Shown piece after piece: positions 41,241 through 57,782 of a stretch of 64,000 nt of DNA (the stretch's first letter is position 1; each line of letters begins with the position of its first letter). The stretch covers positions 183,337-247,336 of the forward strand of contig NW_013657623.1 of assembly GCF_000142905.1 (NCBI RefSeq), given 5' to 3'. The notes under the pieces were generated by a model, which did no database searches, was not told the DNA's origin, and worked only from the letters and a program-made list of their open reading frames with translations. The stretch comes from Thecamonas trahens ATCC 50062. Lineage: Eukaryota; Protista; Apusomonadida. The position numbers were made by a program, and so were the translations under genes.

Positions 41241-41812
41241 GTAATGTCAGGATCCCGCGTGAGACGCGAATGAACACTAGCGCTAGTCAAACTGCGGTTG
41301 TTGCAAGCAGTGCAGATCCCCGGACAATGCGCGCGCGGCAGGTTTTCGTGAAGTTTGGCAACAAACGCTTGCTATGTCCCGGCATGAACGATTGTCCGGT
41401 CAGCGAGCTGGCCCCTACCACACACCACCAGCATTGAGCCCATCTCACTCTCAAGCACACGCTTCGTCCTGAGAGTGGTGCGAAGACCAAAGTCCCTCCT
41501 CCACACAACAAGCCAGTCACATACCATCTGCCGTTCCCGTGGTCCTTGGCAGTGTCTGTGGCTACCGCGGTGACAGTTGCCGTGTCAGTAGCGGCACCAT
41601 TTTCTCCCGCTCTTTCGCTCCAAATTCGCCTCGACAGCTCTGCGGTCAGAGTGTGGCACTCGACTCTGCTTGCTTGTGCGTGTTTCCCTCGCCGGGTGAA
41701 CTGAACTGTGTGGCCGAGTGACCGAGTGCGGTAGCAAGTGGCCACCGGAGCGAGGCTACGGCAAGGCTTGGGGAGGACGGTTGAGCGAAGGGAGAAATAA
41801 GCTGAAAGTACC

Positions 41813-44800
41813 ATGGGCTGGATATGTGTGTGGTCGCGGACTCTGCCGAGTCTGGTCGTTGTGGTGGTACTTGTCCTCGCTCTGGCGGTGGTGGACTCTC
41901 GCTCGAATGGGCCGGTGACCGAAGCGGCCGAATGGCCGGCAAGCGACGCTGTCCAGCCACGCGTCCGCATTGCTGCCTACTATCAGGGCTCTTCGCCGCA
42001 CATCTCGCTACTTCAACAATGGATTGCGGCGTACAATGCATATGCTGCAGGCAACACGAGTGCTGAGCTCGTCCTGTACCCCCTTCCTGACAGTTTCGAG
42101 GAGTCCCTTCCCTGGGTCCTTGGTGGCATGGACGTCATTCTCACGTACCCAAGTCATGGCGAGACACTGCTGACCGGAGCGTATATGGTCCCGCTTGATG
42201 AGGTATGGCAGCGTAACGATCTGGAAGATGCTGTACTCGCTGTGCTCAAACGGACTCTGGCGGCGGGTGGTGACCACAGGTACGGCGTGCCGGCGCTTGC
42301 CCTTGCAGGCGTTTGCACCTACCGCAAGTCGATGTTTGCTGCGCTCGGCGTGACTGTGCCTAGCCATTGGACAGCCTTGCTCGCGTTGTGTGCCAAGGCC
42401 AAAGCTGCCGGGCGGATGTGCCTCGCGGTTGACGTGGGGATTGAGGGTGCGTCGGCGCTCTTTGACTTACTCTTCATCCGCATGTACGGTCACAAAGCTT
42501 ACAGCGCATTCCTCCTCGGCGACGTCTCGTTTGTGGACGGGCCGGTCCGGTCAGTGATGGAAGAAATCATCTGGCTCCATGAGGCTGGCTACTACGTGGC
42601 GTCGGACACACCGGCTGGGCGCAAGCTGCCGCACTCGCGTGGCGTCCTCAGCAATTCGTCTGTCATCTCGTGCGGCGTCGACATGTTTGCCAGCATGATG
42701 AGTCGGGACGAGTCTGCCGACGACCTCGCTTCGTTTGCCTTTCCTGTTTACGACGGCCCCATTGGGTCGGGGCGCGGCGCGGCGGACATGCACAGCGCAC
42801 CGTCGACCTCGGTCTACTTGGCTGCTCCGCGAAGCGCTACCAATGTGGCCGGCGCGGTTGACTTTCTGGCGTTTGTCTCGTCGGCTGCCGGACGCAGCAT
42901 TCTCTCGGCGTGGCTGAGCCAGACGCATGCCTCGTGGGGTGTGCCGGTCTTCAAGTCGGTTGCTGATGAACTCGCGTCGCAGCGGACAGCGCTGGGCCGG
43001 CAGCTACTCGACTCTGACACTGCTCCGCCGCTTCCGTTTTCACGGCGGGGTCTCTCACCGCACCAGCTGTCTGTATCCTGGATTAAGCTGCTGGGCAACG
43101 TTCAGTTGGCGGCCACGGTGGCCGATGCACGGGAAGAGCTCGACGCTGGACTGGAGACGATGGAGGCGATTCGGCTCGCTGAACGGTTCCACAAGGCGTC
43201 ACCGCCGCGAATGCTTCCAGTATCAGGGACGTACCTGGGCGATGTCGAGGTGACGATGACAAGTGTGACGCCGAACGCGACCATGTACTACACGCTCGAC
43301 GGGAGTATGCCGACGCCGAGGTCGGCCAAGTACCGCGGGCCGTTTCGGGTGCGCGGCGAGGTGACGACGGTCCGGGCCATTGCGGTTGCGTTTGCACTCT
43401 ACGAGTCGACGGTGGCCCAGGCCGAGTACAAGACAGCATCGAGCGCCCAGAGCTACTTGGGCGCGGATGACGATTCGCTCAAGGTTGCACTCGGCGTGTC
43501 GACAGCGGTGGTGGCGTGCGCAGTGGTGGCGATTGCGGTTGGTGTGCTGGCGGTGCGGCGGCGGTTCCGGCGGACAGACGTTGCGCCGCTGGGCGACAAG
43601 GCAATTCCGTTTGACGAGTTGGATGTCAAGGGCGTTGTTGGGCTTGGTGTGTTTGGCATGGAGTACATGGGCGCGTGGCAAGGCAAGGCTGTCGTGGTCA
43701 AGCACTTGAGTAACTTTCCGACCCACGGAAGCTTCCGACGCGAGTTCAATGTTAACTGGGCGGCGCTGGCAGACGAGATGGAGCACGTCATGCATCTCTC
43801 GCACCCGAACGTGTCGGCGGTGCTCGGCTTGGCGCGCTCGCCGCCGGTCCTTGTCAACGAGTTTGTGCCGCGCGGCTCGCTGTACAATGTGCTTCACACG
43901 CGGCACATTGCGCTCGACTCGAGTGTCATTTTTATGTGGGCACACAAGCTGTGCGAGGGCATGGCGTACTTGGTGGAGCACGGCGTGACGCATGGCAGCC
44001 TCTCGTCGCTCAGCATCCGACTCGACAACGGGTGGCAGCCGAAGCTCTGTGACTTTGGCTTTCCGCTCCTCCGGACCGGCTCGACCTCGGCGCGGAATGC
44101 GCTTGATCGGACGCACCTTGTCGAGTCTGGGCGCCTGGTGGCGTCGTCGTCTGGCTTCGGCTTGTCGAGCACGTACATGTCGACCGGCCATGGACCGAGG
44201 TTGATGGCAGCGGTGCTGGAGGGCTCGCTCTCGGCTGGCTCGACGAGCCAAATGTTCGGCTCTGTAACCGAGGGAGAGATGAATGTGGCCAAAGAGCTGC
44301 CGTCTGCTGAGTCGATGTACTGGCTAGCGCCCGAGGTGCTCCAGCTCGGGGCGAATGGGTTGTCGCGTGCGGCGGATGCGTATGCGCTTGGCATTGTACT
44401 GTGGGAGCTGACGACACGGCGCGACGTGTACTGGGCGGAGAATCCGCTTGCGGCGGCGCTTGATGTGGTGCGCAACGAGAGGCGGCCCAACGTGGGCGAG
44501 GTGCCGGTTGTTTTTGATGACATCCGCAGCGTCATGGTCGAGTTGTGGCGGCCCGAGCCCGAAGCGCGGATGGAGTTTGTGGTTGCGGCGCATGCGCTAG
44601 GTGCGCTTTACAGCGAGAGCCATGTCATTCTCCCCCGATGCATGGCGGCGGTGGTAGGCCGAACAACAGTGGTCCACTGCGAGCTTCTGGGTGCGCTCCG
44701 GGGCTTGCTCTGCGGAAGTAAGGCCGAGACCGCGCGCCTGACGGCGTTCCACCACGGCCTCCCGGAGCTGGCCAAGCGGACGGGCGGCACAGTGTTTGAG

Positions 44801-46453
44801 TGGGGCTTGGGGTGGGTGACAGCAGTCATGGAGACGCGGCAGTCGGTAATTGACTTTGCGCGGTTTATCCGCGAGTTGGAGCTGTCTTCGGGCCCGGTGA
44901 CAGTGATGGCGACGCATGCCGAGCTAGAGGCGATCGACGTCGACGCAGGGCGGCGGACCCTTGCCGGGCCCGCCATGAGCGCCATGCGCACCAGCTGGCG
45001 AGCCATGTTTGGCCCATACCGCAACGAGAATCTCACTCGGCACACGGGTAATGGGCACGCCCCATCGAGCGCAACCGGAGTGTTTGCGGTCGGCGAGCTG
45101 GCATCTGTGCTCAAGGGTGACGTCCATGTCACGCTGCACAAGGTCGGCCAGCCTGGCGTGTGGCAGCTGCTGCGAGTCGGAGAGGCGCCTGTTGAGCTCG
45201 ACGCTGACGCTGTCGCAAGAGATGGGACGCTCGGCAAAGGAGCGAGACGGCGGGGCAGGGCCATGTCGGCTGGTGCGGCCAGCGAGGCGCTTTCGTCGGA
45301 ACTGTCATCGTCATCGTCAAGCCTTAGCGGCGAAGAGCGAGAGAGCACAAGCATTGCTGAACGGGTTGCATCTGCAGGAACGCTTGGCGTGCAGGAGCAG
45401 TCGCGAGCGATGCTTCGCGAGGTGACAGCCGGCGTGACGGCGCTGCACCTGCTGACGACGAGCGAAGTGGCAGCGATGGTGGAGCAAGGTGGCGAAGTAT
45501 GGCAGAGCTCACTAGGCGTTTCGCACAAGGCCGAGCTTCCGTACGGCGACGATGAGGAGCTCACGCACCCTGTAGTCGTCAAGGTTCTCGCGCGGCAGAC
45601 GTACTCGGCATCGGAGCTGGTGGTGTTTGCGGCAGTGTGTGTGGAGGCAGCGGCGACGCAGGTGGGCGGCGTGATGGGGCCGATTGCGGTGTGTGTAGAG
45701 GCACCGTACATGGCAATTGTGACGCCGCGGTTTGAGCAGGGCTCGCTAGCGGATGCGCTGACGCTCTCGATCTCATCTGTGACAACACAGCGGGTGCGCG
45801 ATGTATGTGTCTCGATACTGTCGGGTCTTGCAGCACTGCATGCGGCGTCGGGCCGCGGGCACGGCGCGCTCCGCCCGTCGAACATCATGCTCGAGGGCCG
45901 CGGCTTGGGCGAGGCAGCGTCGCGGCGGCTGGCGGTGACGCTGGTCGACTTTGGGCTAGAGGCGGTGCGGACTAACCTGGGGACGGTGACGCAAGTGCCG
46001 GTTGTGCGGTACATGTCGCCTGAGGCGCTTCGTGGGGTGGCCGGCTCGCAACAGGGCGACATCTTTGTGGCGGGCACCATCATATACGAGCTCGTAACCG
46101 GCTTTCCCGCCTTTGGCGACGAGAGCTCGTCGCTCGAAGCGGCGATGGACATTGTCGACGGAAAACGGCCGGTGCTCGATGAGCATCTTGTCTTCTCCGA
46201 GTCGCTGCGGAGCCTCATCCAGCGGTGCTGGCTAGAAAATGCCCAGCTTCGGCCGAGTGCTGATGAGTTGCTGAGCGAGCTGAGCAAGCTAGCCGTCGGC
46301 GACTTTATCGGTGTCCAACGGCGAGCTGCGCACGGCCGGACCATTCCCGCGGGAGCAACAGCCTCCGAGTCAAGCTCGACAGCACGATCCGGTGTGAGCA
46401 TGGGCACCCACGGCCCGCCACGACCGCATCCTGCCCAGCTCCGCCTCACATAG
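41813..46453 (+). CDS. Receptor-like TKL protein: solute-binding ectodomain, FN3-associated/chitobiase-C repeat, TM, pseudokinase, degenerate class III cyclase, second pseudokinase
   Basis: Signal peptide; SBP family 1 motifs (MVPLDEV, RYGVP, YRKSMFAALGVTVP.HW..LL); TPNATMYYTLDGSMPT..S.KY.GPF; TM. Kinase 1 GLGVFG..VVVK..HGSL..DFG..WLAPE; kinase 2 VVVK..HGAL..N..DFG..YMSPE. Confidence 0.85.
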   Translation: MGWICVWSRTLPSLVVVVVLVLALAVVDSRSNGPVTEAAEWPASDAVQPRVRIAAYYQGSSPHISLLQQWIAAYNAYAAGNTSAELVLYPLPDSFEESLPWVLGGMDVILTYPSHGETLLTGAYMVPLDEVWQRNDLEDAVLAVLKRTLAAGGDHRYGVPALALAGVCTYRKSMFAALGVTVPSHWTALLALCAKAKAAGRMCLAVDVGIEGASALFDLLFIRMYGHKAYSAFLLGDVSFVDGPVRSVMEEIIWLHEAGYYVASDTPAGRKLPHSRGVLSNSSVISCGVDMFASMMSRDESADDLASFAFPVYDGPIGSGRGAADMHSAPSTSVYLAAPRSATNVAGAVDFLAFVSSAAGRSILSAWLSQTHASWGVPVFKSVADELASQRTALGRQLLDSDTAPPLPFSRRGLSPHQLSVSWIKLLGNVQLAATVADAREELDAGLETMEAIRLAERFHKASPPRMLPVSGTYLGDVEVTMTSVTPNATMYYTLDGSMPTPRSAKYRGPFRVRGEVTTVRAIAVAFALYESTVAQAEYKTASSAQSYLGADDDSLKVALGVSTAVVACAVVAIAVGVLAVRRRFRRTDVAPLGDKAIPFDELDVKGVVGLGVFGMEYMGAWQGKAVVVKHLSNFPTHGSFRREFNVNWAALADEMEHVMHLSHPNVSAVLGLARSPPVLVNEFVPRGSLYNVLHTRHIALDSSVIFMWAHKLCEGMAYLVEHGVTHGSLSSLSIRLDNGWQPKLCDFGFPLLRTGSTSARNALDRTHLVESGRLVASSSGFGLSSTYMSTGHGPRLMAAVLEGSLSAGSTSQMFGSVTEGEMNVAKELPSAESMYWLAPEVLQLGANGLSRAADAYALGIVLWELTTRRDVYWAENPLAAALDVVRNERRPNVGEVPVVFDDIRSVMVELWRPEPEARMEFVVAAHALGALYSESHVILPRCMAAVVGRTTVVHCELLGALRGLLCGSKAETARLTAFHHGLPELAKRTGGTVFEWGLGWVTAVMETRQSVIDFARFIRELELSSGPVTVMATHAELEAIDVDAGRRTLAGPAMSAMRTSWRAMFGPYRNENLTRHTGNGHAPSSATGVFAVGELASVLKGDVHVTLHKVGQPGVWQLLRVGEAPVELDADAVARDGTLGKGARRRGRAMSAGAASEALSSELSSSSSSLSGEERESTSIAERVASAGTLGVQEQSRAMLREVTAGVTALHLLTTSEVAAMVEQGGEVWQSSLGVSHKAELPYGDDEELTHPVVVKVLARQTYSASELVVFAAVCVEAAATQVGGVMGPIAVCVEAPYMAIVTPRFEQGSLADALTLSISSVTTQRVRDVCVSILSGLAALHAASGRGHGALRPSNIMLEGRGLGEAASRRLAVTLVDFGLEAVRTNLGTVTQVPVVRYMSPEALRGVAGSQQGDIFVAGTIIYELVTGFPAFGDESSSLEAAMDIVDGKRPVLDEHLVFSESLRSLIQRCWLENAQLRPSADELLSELSKLAVGDFIGVQRRAAHGRTIPAGATASESSSTARSGVSMGTHGPPRPHPAQLRLT

Positions 46454-46916
46454 TTGCTCATCGTAAATGAAGCGGGAGCCAGCGTAGGCGGTGGGGTCAG
46501 TGCGATGAGAGGACCGAAAGCGGTGATGGTTCGGATCGCCCGCTTAGCGACACGCCGCTGCAGTTGGAGGGAGGGGAGGAGGGGGGAGGGGGGGGGGGGG
46601 GGGTATAGGCATGTTGCACACATACACTTCTCCTCAAGTGTCCTAGGTGGGCAGATAGAGAGAGAGAGAGTGTGTGTGTGTGTGTGTGTGTGCTACATCC
46701 AGAAGACTGTGGCCGCGAGTGCCAAGCAAGCACCACTTGTTGAGCAACGTGTCGAGCTGCGTGTTGAGCAACAAGTGCAGACGCGAGACCGACCAAGGCA
46801 GGACAAGGGCAGGCCGCGAACAAAGCCGTACCAACCAACCAACCCCCTCCTCCTGTCAGTGACCGTCACAGGCAAGAGACACTGAGGCAAGTGAGGCACC
46901 CACGTTCTGTGTCACA

Positions 46917-48782
46917 ATGCCAATGGAGTCGATGCTGCTGAGACGCAGAGTCTTGCGCAATCGGACTGTCCGGATTCCCGCCTCGCCCACAGAGTCTGCC
47001 GTTGCGCTGGCCAACGTCTTGCCATCGCCGCGTCGGTCGGCTCGCGGGCGGCCTGACATGTCACCGCCATCGTCGTCGCCGCCGCCGGTGGAGACGATGC
47101 AGTCGCGCGGGGGATCGCCTCGGCGTGTCACTCGCGGCGCGTCGTCGTCGGTCTTTGCCTTTGACAGCCATACCGAGGCGGCCGGCCCATCGCCTGCTGA
47201 TTCGCACAGCCGGTCGCGGTCACAGTCGCGGTCGCGGTCGCGGTCGCGGTCGCAGTCGGTGGCGCGCGAGGTGCGCGAGCGGAGCGTGACGATCGAGGTG
47301 GACGTTGGAGCAGAGAGCAAGGAGCCGATGGCGATGAGGATGGAGACTGTCTTTGCCTTTCCGTTCAACTACGGTGATGAGGCGTTGGAGGCCAAGGGAA
47401 TGGGCAGCGGGGTGGGCACGACGCTGCAACGATTTGTGTCGGCAACGAACACGCTTGTGGGCGCTGCTGTCGGTGCCCCGCTCGATCAGTGGCAGCCTGG
47501 CGAGTCTGCCCGGAACAAGGATATGGAGTTTGAAGAGATGCTCCTGGTGCGCCGGCTCGCTGCGCTCGAGCTGGGGTACGCGGATGCGCGCGTAGTGGCA
47601 GACCGGGTGGGGACCGAGGCGTGGTCGCTGCCGGTGGCCCTCCACATTGCAGGAGGTGTTTCCGCCGAGCTGGTGAGCGTGGAGGTGCAGCTCTACTCCA
47701 AGTCGGTCGGCCTTCTCATGTTTTCGGTTGCGTCCGACGAGCGTGTTGAGATCAACGAAACCATTGTACTGATCAACGTGCTGCGGCGGCTGACCGAGGC
47801 CGACAACGTCTTTGTCACGCCGCATCAAGAGCACTCGCCGCAGCGGCGGCAGCGGAGGCGGGCGTCGGGTGGCGGCAGCGGGCTCTTTGGCACGCCGCGG
47901 GTCTCGACTGTCGGGCCTGAGGCACCGGTCGCGTTTGCCTCGCGCGACCTCGTGTCGTCGGCGCTCAACGCAACGCTTGGACGCGGGGCGTGGACAGCGG
48001 CCGGTGGCCTCGATCGGCTCTTCACTTACACCACGGTACTGGCGTCGCTGCCAGAGGAGGCCAACGACTTTGCGCTGCGGCGCAAGGTAGCGTACCATCT
48101 GGCGACGGTGACGCGGCTGCTGACGCGAGTCGACGAGTCGTTCATCGAGGAGTTCACCGAGAAGAATGGGTACGGGCGGTTCCTGACCGAGGCCGAAGGC
48201 GGCTCGCACATTGTGTTCTCGCACAACGGTGGAGCTGCGGTGGTGGTGGGCGCGCCAGGCTGCGACTCGGCGGCCATGCTGGCCAAGGGCTGGAAGGGCA
48301 CTCAGCGGTATACCAAGGCGCTCATCGAACCGCTTCTCTACCAGCGGACGTATCTGCAATCGCTCGGGGAGCAGCTCTCTGAGCTGATGCTCGCGCGACG
48401 AAAGACAAGCTGCCTCGACGAGCTCGCTGAGATCCACGGCTCGGTGCTGGAGTTCAAGGCGCGCTACTCGCAGCGGTCGATCTTCAAGACCCGGTCGATG
48501 AAGGAGCTGTTCGCGATCTGGTCAGCTACCGTCGGGCTCGACGTGCTCAACTCGTCGCTTGCCAGTTCTATCGGCGACCTGCACACCTACTACTCGGACG
48601 TCTCGTCGCGCAACACCCAGAAACGGCTCGACGTCCTCGCGGTTGTCCTTGGCATGCTCACGCTCGCCGAGCTCGTCATCAACGTCTACTTTTCTGACGC
48701 CGACTGGTGGGTCCCGCTGGCTGTCATCGGCGTCTTTGGCGTCCTCGCCGCCATCATCCTCATGCTGTACGTGTTCAAGTGA
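46917..48782 (+). CDS. Uncharacterised protein with a long helix and two C-terminal TM helices (CorA-like topology)
   Basis: 621-aa ORF ending SSRNTQKRLDVLAVVLGMLTLAELV..WWVPLAVIGVFGVLAAIILMLYVFK. No GMN motif. Confidence 0.6.
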   Translation: MPMESMLLRRRVLRNRTVRIPASPTESAVALANVLPSPRRSARGRPDMSPPSSSPPPVETMQSRGGSPRRVTRGASSSVFAFDSHTEAAGPSPADSHSRSRSQSRSRSRSRSQSVAREVRERSVTIEVDVGAESKEPMAMRMETVFAFPFNYGDEALEAKGMGSGVGTTLQRFVSATNTLVGAAVGAPLDQWQPGESARNKDMEFEEMLLVRRLAALELGYADARVVADRVGTEAWSLPVALHIAGGVSAELVSVEVQLYSKSVGLLMFSVASDERVEINETIVLINVLRRLTEADNVFVTPHQEHSPQRRQRRRASGGGSGLFGTPRVSTVGPEAPVAFASRDLVSSALNATLGRGAWTAAGGLDRLFTYTTVLASLPEEANDFALRRKVAYHLATVTRLLTRVDESFIEEFTEKNGYGRFLTEAEGGSHIVFSHNGGAAVVVGAPGCDSAAMLAKGWKGTQRYTKALIEPLLYQRTYLQSLGEQLSELMLARRKTSCLDELAEIHGSVLEFKARYSQRSIFKTRSMKELFAIWSATVGLDVLNSSLASSIGDLHTYYSDVSSRNTQKRLDVLAVVLGMLTLAELVINVYFSDADWWVPLAVIGVFGVLAAIILMLYVFK

Positions 48783-48831: not shown

Positions 48832-51800
48832 TTACTCGCTGGCGTTGAGGTCGTCAAGGCCAGGCGGGCGCATGCAGACTGCTGACGGGCTCGGCTCAAA
48901 GGCGGCAAGCATGGAGACGAGCGCAGACATGGGAAGATTGTGGACGCCGCGGGAACGAAGACGCGCGAGATCGGCGCCGGTAGTGACCAGCTCGAGGATG
49001 CCGACGGCGTAGCCGGCCTTGGTGGCCGAATCTAGGTAGGGCGCCAGGCTTGCAAGCGTGACCGATGTGTTGTCGACAATGACCAAGCCGACGTCGGTGG
49101 CAAGAGCATCATTAAAGGCTGTCTGGCACGCGGCGTGGGCGAGTGGGAGGAGGCTGGTGTCAAAGACGGCGGCGTAGACCTCGTGAGGCAGCATGCCCTT
49201 GCGCTTCTTGGCGGTCAGCTTGCCGGCACCGGCCTCAAAGTAAGCATCTGCCGAGACGACCGAAATCTCGTCGCCGGCACGTCCGAGCTGAGCTACGATC
49301 TCGGTGATGAGCGTCGACTTGCCGGTACCGGGCAAGCCGCGGACGAGGAGAACTTTGCGCGTGGCCTTGCCCAGAGGATCCAGCACATGTTCGATGACGT
49401 GAGATGGAGTGGCCACATGGAGCGGCGACGGTGCCGGTGGTGCTTTCCCGGCATCGTCGCGCCAGGCCGCGTACGGTCGCGTGATGGTGACCGTGAGCTT
49501 ACGCGAGGCCTTCTTGCCTTCGGCGTGCGTAGAGAAGCCGTAGCTTTCCGCAAGCTCGTGAATGATCTTGCGCTGGTCGGCTGTGGTGGTGCCGGCCTTG
49601 AGTTTGAGTTTCTCGCCCGGAAGGCCGGCCTCGAGAAGCGTGGCAAGATCACGGCGGAGGCGCGTAGGAAGGCCGATGGAAGCGATGGCGTCAGAGAGTG
49701 CATGCCATGAAAGGCTGGCCGGCACTGCGCCGGCATGGTGCGTGTCGCTGCCAGTGATTGTGTGCCCGACATGGCCGACGAGTCTCGCAAGGGTTGGTGG
49801 AACGTCTGCGCGCTGTGCACCAGCGCAACCAGCAACGTCAAGCCCGATCGCTGGCGCTCTTCCCGAAGCCATACCGAGTGTGAGATGGGCAACCTGGCCG
49901 TGCGCAAGCGGCATGCGAGCAGGCAGGTCGACGAGGGCAACAAGGCCAGCGTCCGGTACATAGGCAAACGACGCAGCCGCAAACTCAATGGAGGCGCCGG
50001 TGAGTGGAATGAGCTCGGCGAGGAGATCGTTAGCGGGGCGGTGAGCAAGGGTGATGTGCGGCGGAGCGAGCGGGCGAAGAAGATTACAGCTGCTCGCGTC
50101 AGGGCTGAGGCCAAGGCCAAGAAGCGCCGCATGCCACAGGGCGTCCGCGTCCTTCTCCGAGACAAAGATCGCTGTGTAGATGACAGCAGCGTCGGTCGGC
50201 AGTGGCAGAGCAGTGATCACACCTGGGGGCGCCGGGGCGGTGGATCGGGGGTAGCGGGCGAGCGCGCGCGGCGATGCATGACACTCGTGGCGGTGAGTGT
50301 AGATGCGAGCGAGAGGCTCTGGCAATGCGTTCGAGACAGCAAGAAGGCTGGTGAGGGATGTGGCGGCAGCGTCGAGACAAGCGGGAGGCAGAGGACGGGC
50401 GCACCAGTCCAGATCGTCATGGGCGTCGGGCGCGCAAAACGCGCGAAGCGGAGCAGAGTCGGGCAGGGTGGCCAGAGCGGCGTCAATGTCGCGGCCTGCA
50501 GTGATGACACGGATGTCAAGTCCGGGCGTGGCAGCCATTCGCGTGATGACTGTGCCGAGATTGCAGCTGGCCTTGACGAGGTGCGGCGAGTCAGTGATGA
50601 GGCTGCAGAGAGCGGCGACGAGGTCGGGCGGAAGAAGGGTAAAGGTGAGGAGGTCGATGGCCCAGGAGCGGGGCGGGGCGTTGGGTGTCTCGAGGGCAAG
50701 GCCTAGAACAAGCGGGCTTGTGCGTCCGCCGCCCGGCCAGAGCTGAAGAGCAACCGCGCGTAGGTCCGGCACTGCGAGTGCGTCGACGAGACCGGCGATG
50801 CCCCAGGTTGCCGGTGGAGGAGCTGGCGATGGTGGAAGAGACAGGGTTGGAAGGCTAGGGGCATCAACAGCGCCGACAAGAAGCTTCAGCTCGTAGGCAG
50901 AGCGCTGTGGTGTGGAATGGTGGACAAAGACCCCGCCGCGGGCGATCCAGGGGTGCGATGCTTGAGCGAGTCATCGATGAGGACGGCGCCAGGGATCGCA
51001 AACGGAGACTTGTCCGAATCCTCAGCAAAGAGCACACGGTCAGCGGGTAGGCCGAGATGGGCCTTGCACCAGGCTCGCTTTTTCTTGCGGGCCTGCTTCC
51101 CGATTTTGCCGTGAGGCACAGCAGTGAGGATGTGGAGCGAAGCGATGGCACCGGCAGCACGCAGGTCGAGAAGGGACTTCCACAGGATGGCAGCGCCGTC
51201 TGTCAGAGCGAGTGAGCCAAAAAAGCCCGCGCTCGAGCCGATGAGTTTCCACATCTTGGCCGGACCGAGCTCTGCCGAGCTCATGCCGCGCGAGAGGGCA
51301 CGGACGCCAGCCTCAAAGTCAGCGAGTACGCCGTCGAGGTCGCAGAAGACCGGTGGGGGCCTGATGGCGAGCGAATTGAGCTCGATGCGGCAAGCAGGTC
51401 AGCCTTGTCGGACTCGACAGCGAGTCGGATAGCAACTCCGCGGTCGATGGATGCCTCGATACCGGTGGTGAGCTGGCGGAGAGTGATGGAAGAGCCAACC
51501 GGGACAAGGCAGGCAGCGATGGCACGAGTAGCACCTGATGCGGCGTCGGTGGCGCAGACGCGCCAGTGGGCGAGAGCAGCCGAGCCCGAGAAGGCCGAGA
51601 CGGCAGCAGCGGGCGGGAGGAGATCGATTCGGAGCTCGCGCGAGCCGTCCTTGCAGTACTTTTCCCAGAGGCCCTTGATGGCACCAGTCGACGGGGCGTA
51701 GCCCGGCTCGACAGCGAGACGCGTGGCGTCGCCGACGGACCGGACCGGAAGGCCGAGGTAGGCAGCGATCTTGCGTGGAAGGTAGGTGTTGAGCAGGTGC

Positions 51801-53779
51801 TTGCGGGTCCTGCGGGAGATGGGGACAAGGCTAGACGGCAAGAGATCGGCCGCGGATACAAAGGTAAGGTCTGCGGTGGTAGCGGCCAACGATGCGGTGG
51901 CACTCGGTCCAGGCTCGAAGAATGCCCGATCCGAGGCGGCGAGCATGGCCAAAGAGGCGTCCCAGGCCAGCCCGAGCCAGGACTCGAGGTCATCGACCGG
52001 GGCCGAGGCGAGCGATGCACAGAGGAGATCAAAGCCGCGAATGGCATCGCCCTTGATGTAGGCGGCAACCATGGTCTCGGATGGAGCAAGGGCTGAGGCG
52101 CGGCCTGCTGCAAGCGCCGCGCGCATGTTGGCCTTTGCGCTGCCAATGCGTGGCGAGACGGCGGCAGCCCAGGCGATCCAGGCAGCATTAAGAGCGGCGA
52201 GACGGGAAGCTGCAAGGGCAAAGAAACGCTCGAGCACCGCGCGCTGCCTGGCACGCTCTGCGGTGTCGAGATGACTGCGGCGCAAGAGGCTGGCCAGGAG
52301 AGCAAGGGTATCGTCGGGTGCGTGAGCGGCGTCGATGGCCGAGGCCCAGAGGGCGGCAGCCGGCGCGCCGATGAGGGTCGGGCGGAGCTTGAGCAGCTCG
52401 GCAAGGAGCAAGCACGGCTTGCCGCCGCCGCGCTTGGCAGCACGCGCGAGGGCGACGTACCACTCGGTTTTGATCTTATACAGCGCCGCGCGAGTACCGG
52501 TGCCGATGGTGAGGACACCGCCTTCGGTGCCGACAAGCGGGGCGAGAGCATCGATGACGCCGGAAAGACCACCCAAGGAGCGAACGGTAGCATCATCCAT
52601 GAGCAGCTGGGTAATCGGAAGGTTGTAGCTCGCAGCCAGGTCCTCGAGCCATTCTCGATCCATGTAGCCGCCGGAAACGTTGTCTCGCGCGGCAAGGAGG
52701 ACGAGGGCGGCGGTAGAGGGCGGGTGGGCGATGACGCCCGGCGAGCCAGCGCACCACTCGAAGAGCAGGGTCACACCGTGGACAGCAGCAGCATGAAGAG
52801 CGGCGGCATCATAGCCGGGCACAGCGGCGGCATGGGCGGCAACGGTCAGCGAAGGCAGGCCGCGGGTGGCCCAGACGACAGTCGAGCCGAGAACGATGGG
52901 CGAGGCGAGCGAGCCGTCGAGCTTTTCGGAGACCAGGACTGGGAGGCCGTCAGCGAGGGCACGGGCGACGGCGTCGGCGACAAGGTCAAAAGCGGTTTCT
53001 GCGAGCTCGTCGATGTTGAAGAACTTGTGGAAGCGGCGGGCGAGGACGGCGCCAGAGCGGGCGTCGACGATGAGGCCGCGAGCCTCGCGGCGGGCGGCCC
53101 GGCGCCAGGCCTCGGCTGCGCGCTCGCTTCGCTTGCAGCCAGTGAGATCATCAAGCGGTGGGAAGGCATCGGCCATTGATGCCACGTTCTTGTAGTCGTA
53201 GGCGATGTAGGCAGCGTCGGGCGCGACGTCGATCTCGCGAGTGACGAAGCAGTCTGCGCCGGCAAGCGCTGCAGCCATTCGGCTCCGTACGTCGCCTTCA
53301 AGGCTGGGGTAGGCGCCCGAGAGAGCGTACGGCTCCAATGCTGAAAGAGGAGGAAGCGAAGTGGCGAGGCAGCTCTTGGGTTTGGGATCGGGGTTGGCGA
53401 CGGGCGACGGGTTGGCGATGGGAGACGGCAGCGGGTTGGTAGCGGCCAGCGGCGGAAGCGGGAGATCAAGCGAGCGGGCATGGGCGAGGTGACTTGATGT
53501 CGAGTGCATAAAGTCGGCGCCGTTGGCAGAGACGCACACGAGTGAGCCATCGACGAGGACGGCGTCAAGGTGACGCTGCGGCGAATCGGAGAAGAGCTCG
53601 TCACCCGAGTCGAAAAGAAAGATGCGAACCGAGGCCGCCGCCCGTGCCGGAAGCTTGAGCTTGGAGATGGCAGCCTTGACGAGGGCGGGCCAAAGCGGAG
53701 GAATAACGACGGTCGAGCATGCCACGCCGCGGTTCTTTCCGGCGTTGCGGCAGAAGGAGATCCGTCGGCGAGAGGCCAT
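48832..53779 (-). CDS. Multidomain RNA repair protein (~1650 aa): Ubl-like, T4 Rnl1-type RNA ligase, unknown domain, HAD (NT5C-like) phosphatase, degenerate DnaQ-like exonuclease, 2H phosphoesterase, R3H, P-loop polynucleotide kinase; two -1 frameshifts near 51357 and 50951
   Basis: Ligase: REARGL, FHKFFN, EKLDGS, TLLFEW, LVLLAARD, TEGGVL, YKIK. HAD: VFCDLDGVLADF (upstream of the ORF-track start 51284), ILTAVP, VLIDD, WIARGG..HH. 2H: HIT..HLT. R3H: RKIIH..YGF. Kinase: RGLPGTGKST, SADAYF, VIVDNT, RGVHN. Confidence 0.82.
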
Positions 53780-54102
53780 GGGTGGAAGAGGAGTGGTGTG
53801 AGATGATGATGTGGTGGGGAGAGGGTGGGGCGGGTGGAAGGGTGACGGGTGGCGGGTGACGGGTGGGGGGATATATTTTATACAATTTTATCTCAAGCAC
53901 CGAGACGGGGGAGAACCACGACCTTTTTCGGTCGAGTGGGCAAAGTGGTGAATGGGCGCGACATCTCGCAAGAGAGCGCCAGACAGGGGGAGCGTGGGTG
54001 GGGCGAGGGCGGAGGGGGGAGGGGGACGGGGGAAAGGCACACACCTGACTCGCAGGAGCAGTGGGTGTAGAGGAGGCGTGGCGTGCGGAGGGGCCAAAGG
54101 AG

Positions 54103-57100
54103 ATGAACGTTGCGCAGAGCGTGCTGTGTGTGCTGGACCCGCAGACGGAGGAGGCGGTGCGACGGGCGGGCGAGGCGAGCATCGAAGCGGCGCGGAGTGA
54201 GGCGGGGCCATGCCTCGCTGCCGGACGGGCACTCCTTGGCGACCACCCGGTCGGAGGCGACGGTGAGCTGGCGCTGACTGTTGGCGGTATCGACTTTTAC
54301 ATCCGGGCCCTCCGCAGCCATTGGGGCATGTACCCGGGCGAGGTCCAGGCCGAGATGACCAGAGAGGTTCTCGGGCTGGCGGCGGCGACGGCGGCGGCGC
54401 GTAGCGGCGATGGGCACGTGCCGGCGGTGGTGGAGGAAAAGGTGGCGGACGCGCTGGTTGCTGTCTCGCTGAGGCATGGCGTGGAGAGCGTGATCAGCGA
54501 TGTGGCCGAGCTGGCGACCGGCAATGACTGCGCCTCGCCGCTCGGCTTCCTCGCACTCCGCTCGCTCTCGGAGGCTGCGCTCGGAGTCGGGACTGCTGGC
54601 TCTGGGCGCGGGTGGGTGGAGCCTCCGCCGCGGCGGGCGGTGATGGACGCGATGGTGAGTGCGGCCGAGCCGCTGGCGTCGATGCTTGTGGAGGCGACGA
54701 GCAGCGTGGCGAGCAACGCGGCGCACAGCGCGCGGCGCGAGGTGGTCAAGGCCGGGCTGCAGGCCATGGCGTCGGTGGCCGAGTGGGCGCCGCTGCCGAT
54801 CCTGTTTGAAGCCAACTTTCTTGGCCTCGCGGCGTCGCTCCTCGCCGAGCCTGCTGTGGCGGAGCACACGCGGGCGGTGCTGGAGAACATGCTTGTGCGG
54901 CGGCGGACGCTGCGGCTGGCTGAGCAGGTGCCGTATCTGGCCATGCTCGAGTGCCTCGAAGCGTTTGGCGGGGCAGTGGACGGGAGCCGCGGCGTCGAGT
55001 CGCACGCCGAGGCTTCGCACGCGCGCGGGGTGGCCGAGGTCCTTGTTGATCTCGGGACGCTCATGCTCGAGTTTGTGGCGAGCGAGCGGCCACCAGAGGG
55101 GCTCGACAGCGCGTTTGGTCCGTTTCTGGAGGTCATGGTGGTAGCTTCGGCGCATCCTGCTGTGAGCGTCTCGACCGAGGTGCTTCCGTTCTGGTGTGAG
55201 GTTGTGGCGTCGCGTGTGGTGCCCAAGGCGACGGACGAGCTTGCGAGGTCAGACCTGTACGCGACGCTGTGGCACATTGCAGCAGCGCGGGTGCGCAAGG
55301 TCGGCGATCCGGAGCTGGATGAGGGCGCGTTTGGCGAGGCGTCGCGGGCTGTCGGGCTGACGACGGCGGAGTGGACGGTTGCCGCCGGGCGGCAGCGGTC
55401 GCTGGCGCTGCGGATGGTGCGCGAGCTGACGCGGATGCACCGGCCGGGCGCGGTGGCGTTTGTGGCGACGTTTGTGCGGGAGACGCTGCGCGGGTTAGGC
55501 GAGGACGGATACGGGGCGTCGCCGGACGCGAGCTTTGCGTCGACCTGGTCACCTGTGTTTGTCACGTTTGAGGCGCTCTCGCTGCTTGTGGCGTCGGTCA
55601 TCGACGAGGTAGCACAGGTCCCGGCGTGGCTCGCCAACGCGCCGACCGAGTCGCTTGCGGACCAGGCGGCCGAGACGGCGGCGGCGCGAAAGGCGGCGCT
55701 GCTGCCGGACGGGGTCAACCGGTTCGACGAGCTGTACGAGGCCAAAGGTGAGCTTCTCGGCGAGCTTGACGGCATGCTCGAGATGCTTCTGCAGCTCGAG
55801 CTGGGCGAGCTCGGGGCGCCGACGGCGGATCCAGGACTGATGTCGCGGCATGTGCACATGCTGGTGGCCTTTGCGCCGTTCCTCCGTGAGTTCCCTGACC
55901 GGCTCTCGGCAGTGCTGGGCGTCCTGCTCTCGTACGTGGCGCTCGACGGCGAGAGCGGCAAGGCTGCGCTTGCGGCTGCAGGGCTAAGTGACGGCGCGGT
56001 GGCGCGGTACGGCGAGTCGCTCCGGGCTGCTTCGAAGAAAGCCTCGTCGTCGCTCATTAAGCTCGCGTCGAGTCTCGGGCCTGTGCTTGCGGAAGCGCTG
56101 CCTGGCCTGTTGGAGGCATACCAGGAGCTGCAGGTGCGGGGGCGCTGTCGTCGATGGTGCGGATGCTGCTGGTGGAGGCACTGCTTGTGATGACCTCGCA
56201 CGTGCCGGACGAAGCGACCAAGGGTGCGCTGCTGGAGCAAGTACTTGCGCCTGTGACCTCAACACTCGACATCGACGGGATCATTGTGCCGGGGCTGAGC
56301 TCGGGCAGGTCGCTTGTGGCGGCGATCGGGCTCGACGGGAGCGGACTCGACGAGGCGGGTGGGATGCTGTTCAGCGAGGCACACGGGAGCTTTCGGTCGC
56401 AGCTATGGGCGTTTGTGCACCTCGCGGCGGCGGTGGTCAAGCACGGGTCTGTGGGCACGCTTGTGGCGCACCTTGTGGCGTCGTACCTCGAGGGCCTGAT
56501 GGCGTTTCTGGCGGCGGTCCACGGGGTGTGGGACGAGCGGGCGCGGGTGCCGGCGCCGTACGACGCGGTGCTGGGCGTTGGTCCGCCGTCGGCGCGGTAC
56601 CCGGAGCTGGGCGAGGCCGAGTCCGAGCTGGTGTCGCTGCGGGGCATGCTTGGCTCTGCACGGCGGCAGGCGTACGAGGCGCTGGCGACGGCGTTCTCGC
56701 TACACGGCGGGCGGTACCTGGCGAGCGTGGCGTTGCCATCCGAGGTGCTGGAGCGGTGCGTGCTGGCCTCGCTCGGCGCACTCTCAGTCCAGCACATCAA
56801 GCCGCTGCTGGACGGGTTTGTCTGCCCGATGTTGGGCTCTGTCAGCGATGCGGTGCTCGACGAGCTGTGTGGGTCGAATGCACTAGTGGCGCTTCTCGCA
56901 AGCCTGCACAGCGTGCTTGCTGCCGGGTGGGTGACAGCGGCAGAGGGCGGGTCGGGCGCGGCGGACGTGGTCGAGGTTGCCGAGGCGCGGGCGCTGTGCG
57001 ACGGGACGCGGGCGCTGGCGCACTTTCTGGGGCGGGTGGCAGTGGTGGCCGGCGCAGGCCTCACCCGCGCCAACGGGTACGGCATGCACGCGCTCAGCGG

Positions 57101-57782
57101 CTCGGACCGCTCCAGCAGCTCGGAACCGGTCGACGCCGAGGCTGTGGCGCAGAAGCTGCGGGCGTCGCTGCCGCCGCTGACGGCGCGGCTGCTTTTCACG
57201 TCCGAAGCGCTGCTCTCTGCTGTGGCTGGCAGCGCACTGGCGCTGATGTCGTGGGGCGACGTGCCGAGCATTGCCGAGGCTGCCGATGTGTGCCTGCGGC
57301 TTGTGCCGCTGCTGGCGACGCACTCGGAGCTTGGTGCGGCGTTGGTGGGGACCGAGATGCTCACCGGGGCCATCCAAGCGCTGGCCAACGGCGTCGACGC
57401 CAATGCCGAGGGCCTCCTCGTCAATGTCGTGGCCAACGCATACATGGCGGTCGGCCCGGTAGCTCCGGACCGTGTCCGCTCGGTTGTCGTCCAGATCCCG
57501 GGCATGGACGATGCCGGCGTCGTGGCCTTTGAGGAGACGCTCCTGGCCACGCGATCGGAGAAGCACCTCCGACGGCTCGTCCGCCAGCTCCTGTCGCCCA
57601 TCCTCGGCATCAACAACGCGTTTGGGCGGAGCGGGAGCGCCGGAGCTCCGCGGCGGGATCGCAGCGAGCGCAACGAGCGCAAGCAGGCCGCGTTTGTTGT
57701 CTCCAAGCCCCGGCGCGGTGGCGACGACGACAGAGGCGACGACGTGTCGGTCGGCGACTCGCTGCGTGCGCTCTTTGGGTAA
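54103..57782 (+). CDS. XPO5: Exportin-5/Msn5/HASTY-like importin-beta family karyopherin (~1225 aa); one frameshift at the G-run 56138-56142
   Basis: HEAT-like helical ORFs 54061-56190 and 56154-57782 join by one added G (LQVRGALSSMVRMLLVEAL). N-terminal VLCVLDP, AEWAP, HPAVSVS..LPFW and SEKHLR near the C-terminus match exportin-5 landmarks. Confidence 0.68.

Follow-up and report, generated by a model that had tools for sequence, protein, structure and literature searches.

The window analysed here, a 64-kb stretch (64,000 nucleotides) of contig NW_013657623.1 of the marine protist Thecamonas trahens, holds AMSG_10166, a minus-strand gene whose predicted product combines RNA-sealing and RNA end-healing domains. 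An initial annotation, made from the letters of the window without database searches, proposed that three open reading frames (ORFs) at this locus are pieces of one protein of about 1650 residues, interrupted by two frameshifts. Here, we followed up this proposal with contigs of other sequencing runs, profile and fold searches, and a survey of relatives in protists and giant viruses.

One reading frame across two assembly errors

Three minus-strand frames were found (51281-53887, with an ATG at 53779; 50886-51398; and 48832-50970), and reading through the G runs at 51355-59 and 50950-53 joins them, from this ATG to the stop at 48832, into 1649 residues with no internal stop. The region was compared with assembled contigs, not raw reads, from eight of the 24 listed sequencing runs. 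At site 50949, all four runs with a bridging contig carried an extra G (X1, X2, X7, and X8), and an X4 contig stopped inside the run; at site 51354, the extra G was present in X1, X5, and X7 and missing from X3, the fourth bridging run. Both insertions occurred together on a single X7 contig. Because X1, X7, and X8 are metagenomes of three studies, each with substitutions of its own, they are independent of the reference assembly. The pieces belong to one frame, as the initial annotation supposed, and the breaks, which it had left to be checked against other data, are homopolymer errors of the assembly rather than biological frameshifts. Programmed frameshifting and true introns at both sites were ruled out, since the DNA contigs themselves contain the extra bases. 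Two further length differences were each seen on one contig: a 4-base insertion at 53402, in a Pro-rich linker (X8; unlisted in the other covering runs), and one base missing from a six-base run at 51079 (X4).

The 32 strain substitutions comprised 18 silent and 14 replacing changes (ratio of replacing to silent polymorphism, pN/pS, 0.29; p=5e-4), and the gene is under purifying selection. The database model of AMSG_10166 has 1506 residues and is 143 too short: it omits the stretches around both errors and 58 other in-frame residues, and the dropped residues, restored in the corrected model, include the end of the HAD domain.

The neighbours of AMSG_10166 are ordinary eukaryotic nuclear genes and GC content is even and ordinary across the window, which rules out an endogenous-virus island. 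Divergent from AMSG_10166 lies a plus-strand gene of the Exportin-5 family (54049-57782), split over two frames near 56061-56190; a CAG/GTGCG site and a G5 run at 56138 leave two explanations, an intron or a further homopolymer error. On the other side, a convergent ORF of 639 codons (46863-48782, plus strand) encodes two C-terminal hydrophobic segments, gave no Pfam match at 1e-5, and ends 50 bases from the AMSG_10166 stop; beyond it, 41801-46453 (plus strand) encodes a receptor-like protein of 1550 residues with a solute-binding domain, an Fn3-associated domain, a hydrophobic segment, and two kinase domains.

Table 1. Features of the AMSG_10166 locus, in window coordinates (aa, residues of the corrected protein)
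Feature	Coordinates	Strand	Basis
Coding sequence, 1649 aa with two one-base assembly errors corrected; AMSG_10166	48832..53779	-	joined frames, contigs of other runs
G5 run, assembly one G short	51355..51359	.	extra G in three of four bridging runs
G4 run, assembly one G short	50950..50953	.	extra G in four of four bridging runs
Beta-grasp (ubiquitin/CIDE-N-like) N-terminal domain, aa 1-95	53495..53779	-	fold match, conserved in family
Rnl1-type RNA ligase adenylyltransferase domain, aa 155-450	52430..53317	-	Pfam, fold, motifs
Helical domain 3' of ligase, aa 451-612	51944..52429	-	DSSP; outside C-domain alignments of T4 Rnl1 and Trl1 (whole-model search)
Family-specific alpha/beta domain without assigned function, aa 645-790	51410..51847	-	family profile, 70.8 bits
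NT5C-type HAD phosphatase, aa 808-965	50887..51358	-	phrog_2643, E 4.8e-16
RNase D/DnaQ fold, predicted inactive	50302..50805	-	fold match, DEDDy residue loss
2H phosphoesterase, sequence-divergent	49753..50190	-	fold match, two HxT motifs
R3H nucleic-acid-binding domain (R1404, H1408)	49477..49668	-	Pfam PF01424, E 8e-7
P-loop kinase, polynucleotide kinase/PSTK group	48862..49362	-	Pfam AAA_33, E 2.1e-11

Domains of the corrected protein

Structure models of two long pieces of the protein had mean predicted local distance difference test scores of 85 and 80. In these models, the N-terminal ubiquitin-like (Ubl) domain matches 7v6e (Z 10.4, root-mean-square deviation (rmsd) 1.8, 76 aligned). 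The ligase domain, recognised by Pfam PF09511 (E 2.7e-15), best matches T4 Rnl1 in fold (9do4; Z 26.8, rmsd 2.1, 243 aligned), pairing model residues 160-450 with residues 0-255 of T4 Rnl1, and Trl1 comes second (Z 21.5). Nucleotidyltransferase motifs I, Ia, III, IV, and V are all present (K286/D288, R306, E341, E419/G420, and K435/K437), with residues invariant or nearly so among 62 relatives. R234 and K252, each found in 62 of 62 relatives within family-invariant E-x-R-G and K-F-F motifs, appear by motif pairing to correspond to Arg54 and Lys75 of T4 Rnl1, which are reported to be essential (PMC6379707). The TIGR02308 score was 35.5 against a cut-off of 242. Ligase alignments end at model residue 450 for T4 Rnl1 and at 453-471 for Trl1.

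The alpha/beta domain that follows the helical region had no Pfam, NCBIfam, or PHROG match, its best PDB sequence match had an E of 0.42, and it yielded no usable atlas match. It was also absent from the matches of the whole-model fold searches, in which it was not folded alone, so that a novel fold is not implied; judged by secondary structure, the domain ends in a helix-three strands-helix-strand tail similar to a restriction-endonuclease-like core. Seven residues are near-invariant in relatives (E, D, R, D, Q, H, and Q), four of which are lost and three kept in Thecamonas, where 16 of 39 conserved positions differ.

Further along the chain, the HAD domain keeps motifs I (DxD; D814/D816), II (T/S; T886), III (K; K924), and IV (DD; D936/D937). 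The HAD with a DxD motif named in the initial annotation was therefore present, yet it is of the NT5C deoxyribonucleotidase type: motif I reads DLDGV, the DxDxT of T4 Pnkp-type phosphatases is absent, and the best matches are NT5C/5'(3')-deoxyribonucleotidases (family profile against the mitochondrial enzyme, E 4.8e-9). The exonuclease fold resembles RNase D in the model (1yt3; Z 13.0, rmsd 3.0, 163 aligned) and keeps one of five DEDDy residues, an Asp, while all five are present in 58 of 71 family rows; the loss of the other four agrees with the lack of DEDD acids suspected initially. The 2H domain carries HIT at H1242 and HLT at H1299, and its modelled fold matches the catalytic domain of CNPase (2xmi; Z 14.5, rmsd 2.8, 147 aligned); it scores just 8.1 bits on the family hidden Markov model (HMM), yet above 500 of 500 shuffles. 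The kinase retains a GLPGTGKST P-loop (K1488), D1512, D1570, and lid R1611, and matches polynucleotide kinase 4gp6 (Z 14.9), T4 Pnk 1ly1 (Z 13.6), and 4xrp. D1512 lies just downstream of the P-loop, as does the general-base Asp reported for tested kinases (PMC11571804, PMC3592404). Hence, all scored catalytic residues of the ligase, HAD, 2H, and kinase domains are kept in the Thecamonas copy. A C-terminal PPL4 prim-pol domain was not found: the stop lies at 48832-34, the convergent gene ends at 48782, contigs crossing the stop are gapless, and no AEP match was obtained.

Profile or fold searches thus recovered the seven domains named at the outset (Ubl, Rnl1 ligase, HAD, RNase D fold, 2H, R3H, and kinase) in the proposed order, with motifs near the positions claimed for them: K252 at 53026, K286 at 52924, K435 at 52477, and D814 at 51341, followed by H1242 at 50058, H1299 at 49887, the R3H His at 49560, and the P-loop Lys at 49320.

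Relatives in protists and giant viruses

The survey gave about 70 relatives, from giant viruses and from eight or more other named protists; two overlapping searches returned 70 and 59 proteins, and a third, with the C-terminal half as query, returned only AMSG_10166 itself. The order Ubl-ligase-alpha/beta domain-HAD-exonuclease-2H-R3H-kinase-prim-pol was present in 55 of 71 other proteins of at least 1300 residues with domain hits. The architecture sought by the initial annotation was thus found elsewhere, with a prim-pol added; its seven-domain form exists in Thecamonas, but the usual family form has an intact DEDDy exonuclease and the prim-pol, and the Thecamonas protein is a reduced member of a wider nine-domain family. 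The family HMMs were built from the same sequences that they scored, while Pfam independently gives the ligase, exonuclease, R3H, AAA_33, and PPL4 domains in eight scanned relatives. The relatives' intact exonuclease is Nibbler/WRN/Rrp6-like (E 1.5e-23).

Among named eukaryotes, complete or shortened versions are carried by Cymbomonas, Dinoflagellata sp. MGD, Gymnodinium, Artemidia, Sulcionema, Mastigella, Pelomyxa, and Balamuthia. The full form stands on five IMG/VR contigs (four distinct proteins), one of them in a giant-virus bin with a nucleocytoplasmic large DNA virus (NCLDV) capsid; a capsid scored above cut-off in one of the three viral records searched (L002 and L004 lay outside this search). 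RtcB and VLTF3 were not found in three viral records, which are incomplete and hence uninformative on this point. AT-rich members without a name are assumed to be viral from their grouping with IMG/VR viral contigs. Prokaryotic genomes yielded four loci, all with the ligase domain alone.

The family ligases form one clade relative to stand-alone Rnl1 (support 100/99), which includes the Thecamonas ligase and splits into a virus-type group, about half of the tree, and a eukaryote-type group. In a quick tree the virus-type clade was nested, in an unresolved fork; in a more careful tree, built without 10 stand-alone ligase rows and four long rows, its sister group (97/91) was the eukaryote-type clade, itself weakly supported (96/64). 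The two trees do not fix a direction of transfer between viruses and eukaryotes.

Other combinations were also encountered. Balamuthia P0122 is a permuted member with the alpha/beta domain C-terminal after the prim-pol, which shows the domain to be a movable unit; P0065 fuses Rnl1 to a poly(A) polymerase-like domain and also matches the family HAD, 2H, and R3H models; P0067 (Cavenderia) fuses Rnl1 to FNIP repeats and a protein kinase; and an Aquimarina ORF (L058:2945-5095) fuses an AbiEii-type nucleotidyltransferase to an Rnl1 ligase.

A probable RNA repair pathway and its alternatives

Folds, profiles, and kept motifs support the reading of AMSG_10166 as an RNA end-healing and sealing enzyme, and we consider it probable that this single 1649-residue protein, with its Rnl1-type ligase, HAD, 2H, R3H, and P-loop kinase domains, repairs RNA cut by metal-independent nucleases; the enzymatic functions we infer from motifs and modelled folds. 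The 2H domain would open the 2',3'-cyclic phosphate, the HAD would then strip off whichever 2'- or 3'-phosphate is left and so expose a clean 3'-OH, the kinase would phosphorylate the 5'-OH, and the ligase would seal the break via lysyl-AMP (K286) and AppRNA. The junction would lack a 2'-phosphate, and Tpt1 would then not be needed. Such a pairing, in which the 2H domain opens and the HAD cleans, would account for the joint presence of a 2H domain and a phosphatase alongside a ligase in which no Trl1 C-domain was detected. Broken tRNA or rRNA from stress or virus-host conflict are the likely substrates, and the biological trigger is the part of this scheme of which we are least sure. Rnl1-type ligases are reported to join 3'-OH to 5'-phosphate ends, the 2H domain of Trl1 to yield a 2'-phosphate, and the HAD of T4 Pnkp to remove 2'-, 3'-, and cyclic phosphates (PMC3400036, PMC3592404).

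The modules also occur as neighbouring separate genes in other viral contigs: of 38 ligase loci, 14 have a kinase close by, and of 12 HAD loci, three have a 2H gene adjoining the NT5C-type HAD, two of these three being similar. Three viral loci encode, next to an NT5C-type HAD gene, a small stand-alone protein with two HxT motifs (L018:9364-9792, L020:9373-9801, and L045:10722-11087); these proteins belong to phrog_36523, which is unannotated, have no Pfam match, and likely represent an unnamed 2H family.

Several observations speak against this pathway or the evidence for it. First, X3 and X5 derive from the same sample, so that this sample conflicts with itself at 51354, and a full-length transcript was not seen, the sole RNA run (X14), too sparse to show expression, yielding only two pieces longer than 200 bases that are possibly DNA. 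Second, the nearest solved relatives of the HAD, whose action on RNA ends we infer, are free-nucleotide phosphatases; the kinase fold score ties with PSTK (3a4l, Z 14.9); and vertebrate CNPase has a PNK-like domain that is reported to be inactive despite its P-loop (PMC5434554). Third, the branch of the Thecamonas copy is long, and the family HMMs do not detect its 2H and exonuclease domains at 1e-4. The 2H motifs are lost in 17 of 71 members, so that not every member needs the 2H step.

RNA repair by one polypeptide has a precedent in Trl1 of fungi and plants (Rnl6 clade). On a single chain, Trl1 likewise combines an ATP-dependent ligase with a P-loop kinase and a 2H cyclic phosphodiesterase (CPD), and it is described as a complete heal-and-seal pathway (PMC3400036, PMC3592404). 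The initial claim that known enzymes carry only subsets of the pathway thus fails for Trl1, and also for the T4 Pnkp HAD, which removes the cyclic phosphate on its own; the claim of a different order holds against Trl1, where it is ligase-kinase-CPD, as against ligase-alpha/beta domain-HAD-exonuclease fold-2H-R3H-kinase in AMSG_10166. By this order AMSG_10166 is not a Trl1; it also has an extra HAD, Ubl, R3H, exonuclease fold, and alpha/beta domain, and the whole-model search, in which the Trl1 C-domain was not searched as an isolated domain, reported no match to that domain, which is said to define Rnl6 and its 2'-phosphate dependence (PMC6379707). Trl1 seals in a 2'-phosphate-dependent manner, and its kinase prefers GTP. 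AMSG_10166 would work like Trl1 and also like T4 Rnl1 plus Pnkp: T4 Rnl1 is its best ligase fold match, its kinase matches T4 Pnk, and it has a HAD phosphatase, from which a clean junction is predicted. Unlike the T4 pair, it is fused in one chain, has the NT5C-type HAD, and adds a 2H domain; in the whole-model search, its helical domain did not align with the C-terminal tRNA-specificity domain of T4 Rnl1.

These comparisons bear on the possibility that AMSG_10166 is a housekeeping ligase for tRNA splicing (or Ire1-type mRNA splicing) in place of RtcB or Trl1. Its ligase, kinase, and 2H domains recur in Trl1, the second-best ligase fold match, and the gene stands among ordinary nuclear genes with ordinary GC, yet the ligase is closer to T4 Rnl1, the match stops before the Trl1 C-domain, the distribution of the family among eukaryotes is patchy, and a virus-type clade makes up about half of its ligase tree. 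We therefore regard splicing as unlikely and, of the two options raised initially, favour repair. An RNA end-processing or decay platform, in which the exonuclease, 2H, and HAD domains degrade cyclic nucleotides or RNA ends to nucleosides, with ligation as a secondary activity, would suit an NT5C-like HAD and relatives with an intact exonuclease, but is rather improbable given that no modules are kept more strictly than ligase and kinase, and that the exonuclease is dispensable and, in Thecamonas, dead. A decaying relic or pseudogene, or three separate genes, as might be read from the lost exonuclease and alpha/beta residues, the absent prim-pol, the X3 contig without the extra base, and the X8 insertion, is largely refuted by the frame restored at both sites by independent runs, a pN/pS of 0.29, the fully kept ligase, HAD, 2H, and kinase residues, and single-chain relatives with the same domain order.

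Several multidomain systems come close to the repair enzyme proposed here. Baculovirus Rnl1 and bacterial Pnkp also combine ligase, kinase, and phosphatase activities within a single chain; we know of no 2H, R3H, exonuclease, Ubl, or prim-pol domain in them, and they were compared with AMSG_10166 only through the kinase fold matches 4gp6 and 4xrp. Burroughs and Aravind in 2016 reportedly described "Swiss-army-knife" RNA repair proteins that combine a ligase, end-cleaning enzymes, and a nucleotidyltransferase, as well as the PPL4 prim-pol. AMSG_10166 shares this theme, and its relatives match Pfam PPL4; HAD_SAK and 2H-SAK gave no Pfam match in AMSG_10166 or nine scanned relatives. Multi-domain RNA repair proteins are a known theme (PMC7824862, citing Burroughs and Aravind 2016). 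Searched by structure, the N-terminal half had as its top viral match (E 2e-29, 644 columns, 24% identity) the "tRNA ligase/uridine kinase" of Bodo saltans virus (A0A2H4UTQ7), about half the length of AMSG_10166 at 891 residues and a relative listed among tRNA repair genes (PMC5871332). The architecture was not described in the literature searched, which left outside most subscription papers and the 2016 review with its supplement.

Residue losses across the family suggest a core heal-and-seal enzyme with an optional end-editing module, though the pattern is not established. In an alignment of 71 proteins (two others, truncated or permuted, were omitted), the full set of key residues was present for the kinase in 71, the ligase and the HAD in 68 each, the exonuclease in 58, the alpha/beta domain in 56, the prim-pol in 55, and the 2H domain in 54. 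The alpha/beta domain is lost or decayed in 10 proteins, among them that of Thecamonas, and none of these 10 has an intact exonuclease or an intact prim-pol. The loss of 2H is independent of these losses. After tree correction, about four of five to six independent pairs were concordant and none opposed (median p 0.06-0.125); the co-loss is then not significant, and some apparent losses are possibly truncated predictions. The alpha/beta domain, DEDDy exonuclease, and prim-pol of the full-size family would likely form an end-trimming and refilling module that has decayed in Thecamonas. It is a tentative and rather doubtful extension that a two-tier RNA repair machine of nine domains, so far undescribed, is common to giant viruses and scattered protists; in it, a core (Rnl1, NT5C-type HAD, 2H, R3H, and kinase), all that Thecamonas has, would be joined by a trim-and-refill module (a new enzyme domain, the exonuclease, and the prim-pol) that rebuilds RNA ends missing nucleotides.

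If the proposed repair pathway is correct, eukaryotes would possess a heal-and-seal route distinct from Trl1, with a clean junction made without Tpt1, and NT5C-type HADs would gain a role on RNA ends. The family further offers a conserved domain without a library match and a prim-pol that possibly acts on RNA. Its presence in giant viruses suggests RNA cutting by the hosts during infection, and, should the two-tier arrangement prove true, its upkeep there would point to protists defending themselves against viruses by cutting RNA, in a eukaryotic equivalent of tRNA restriction.

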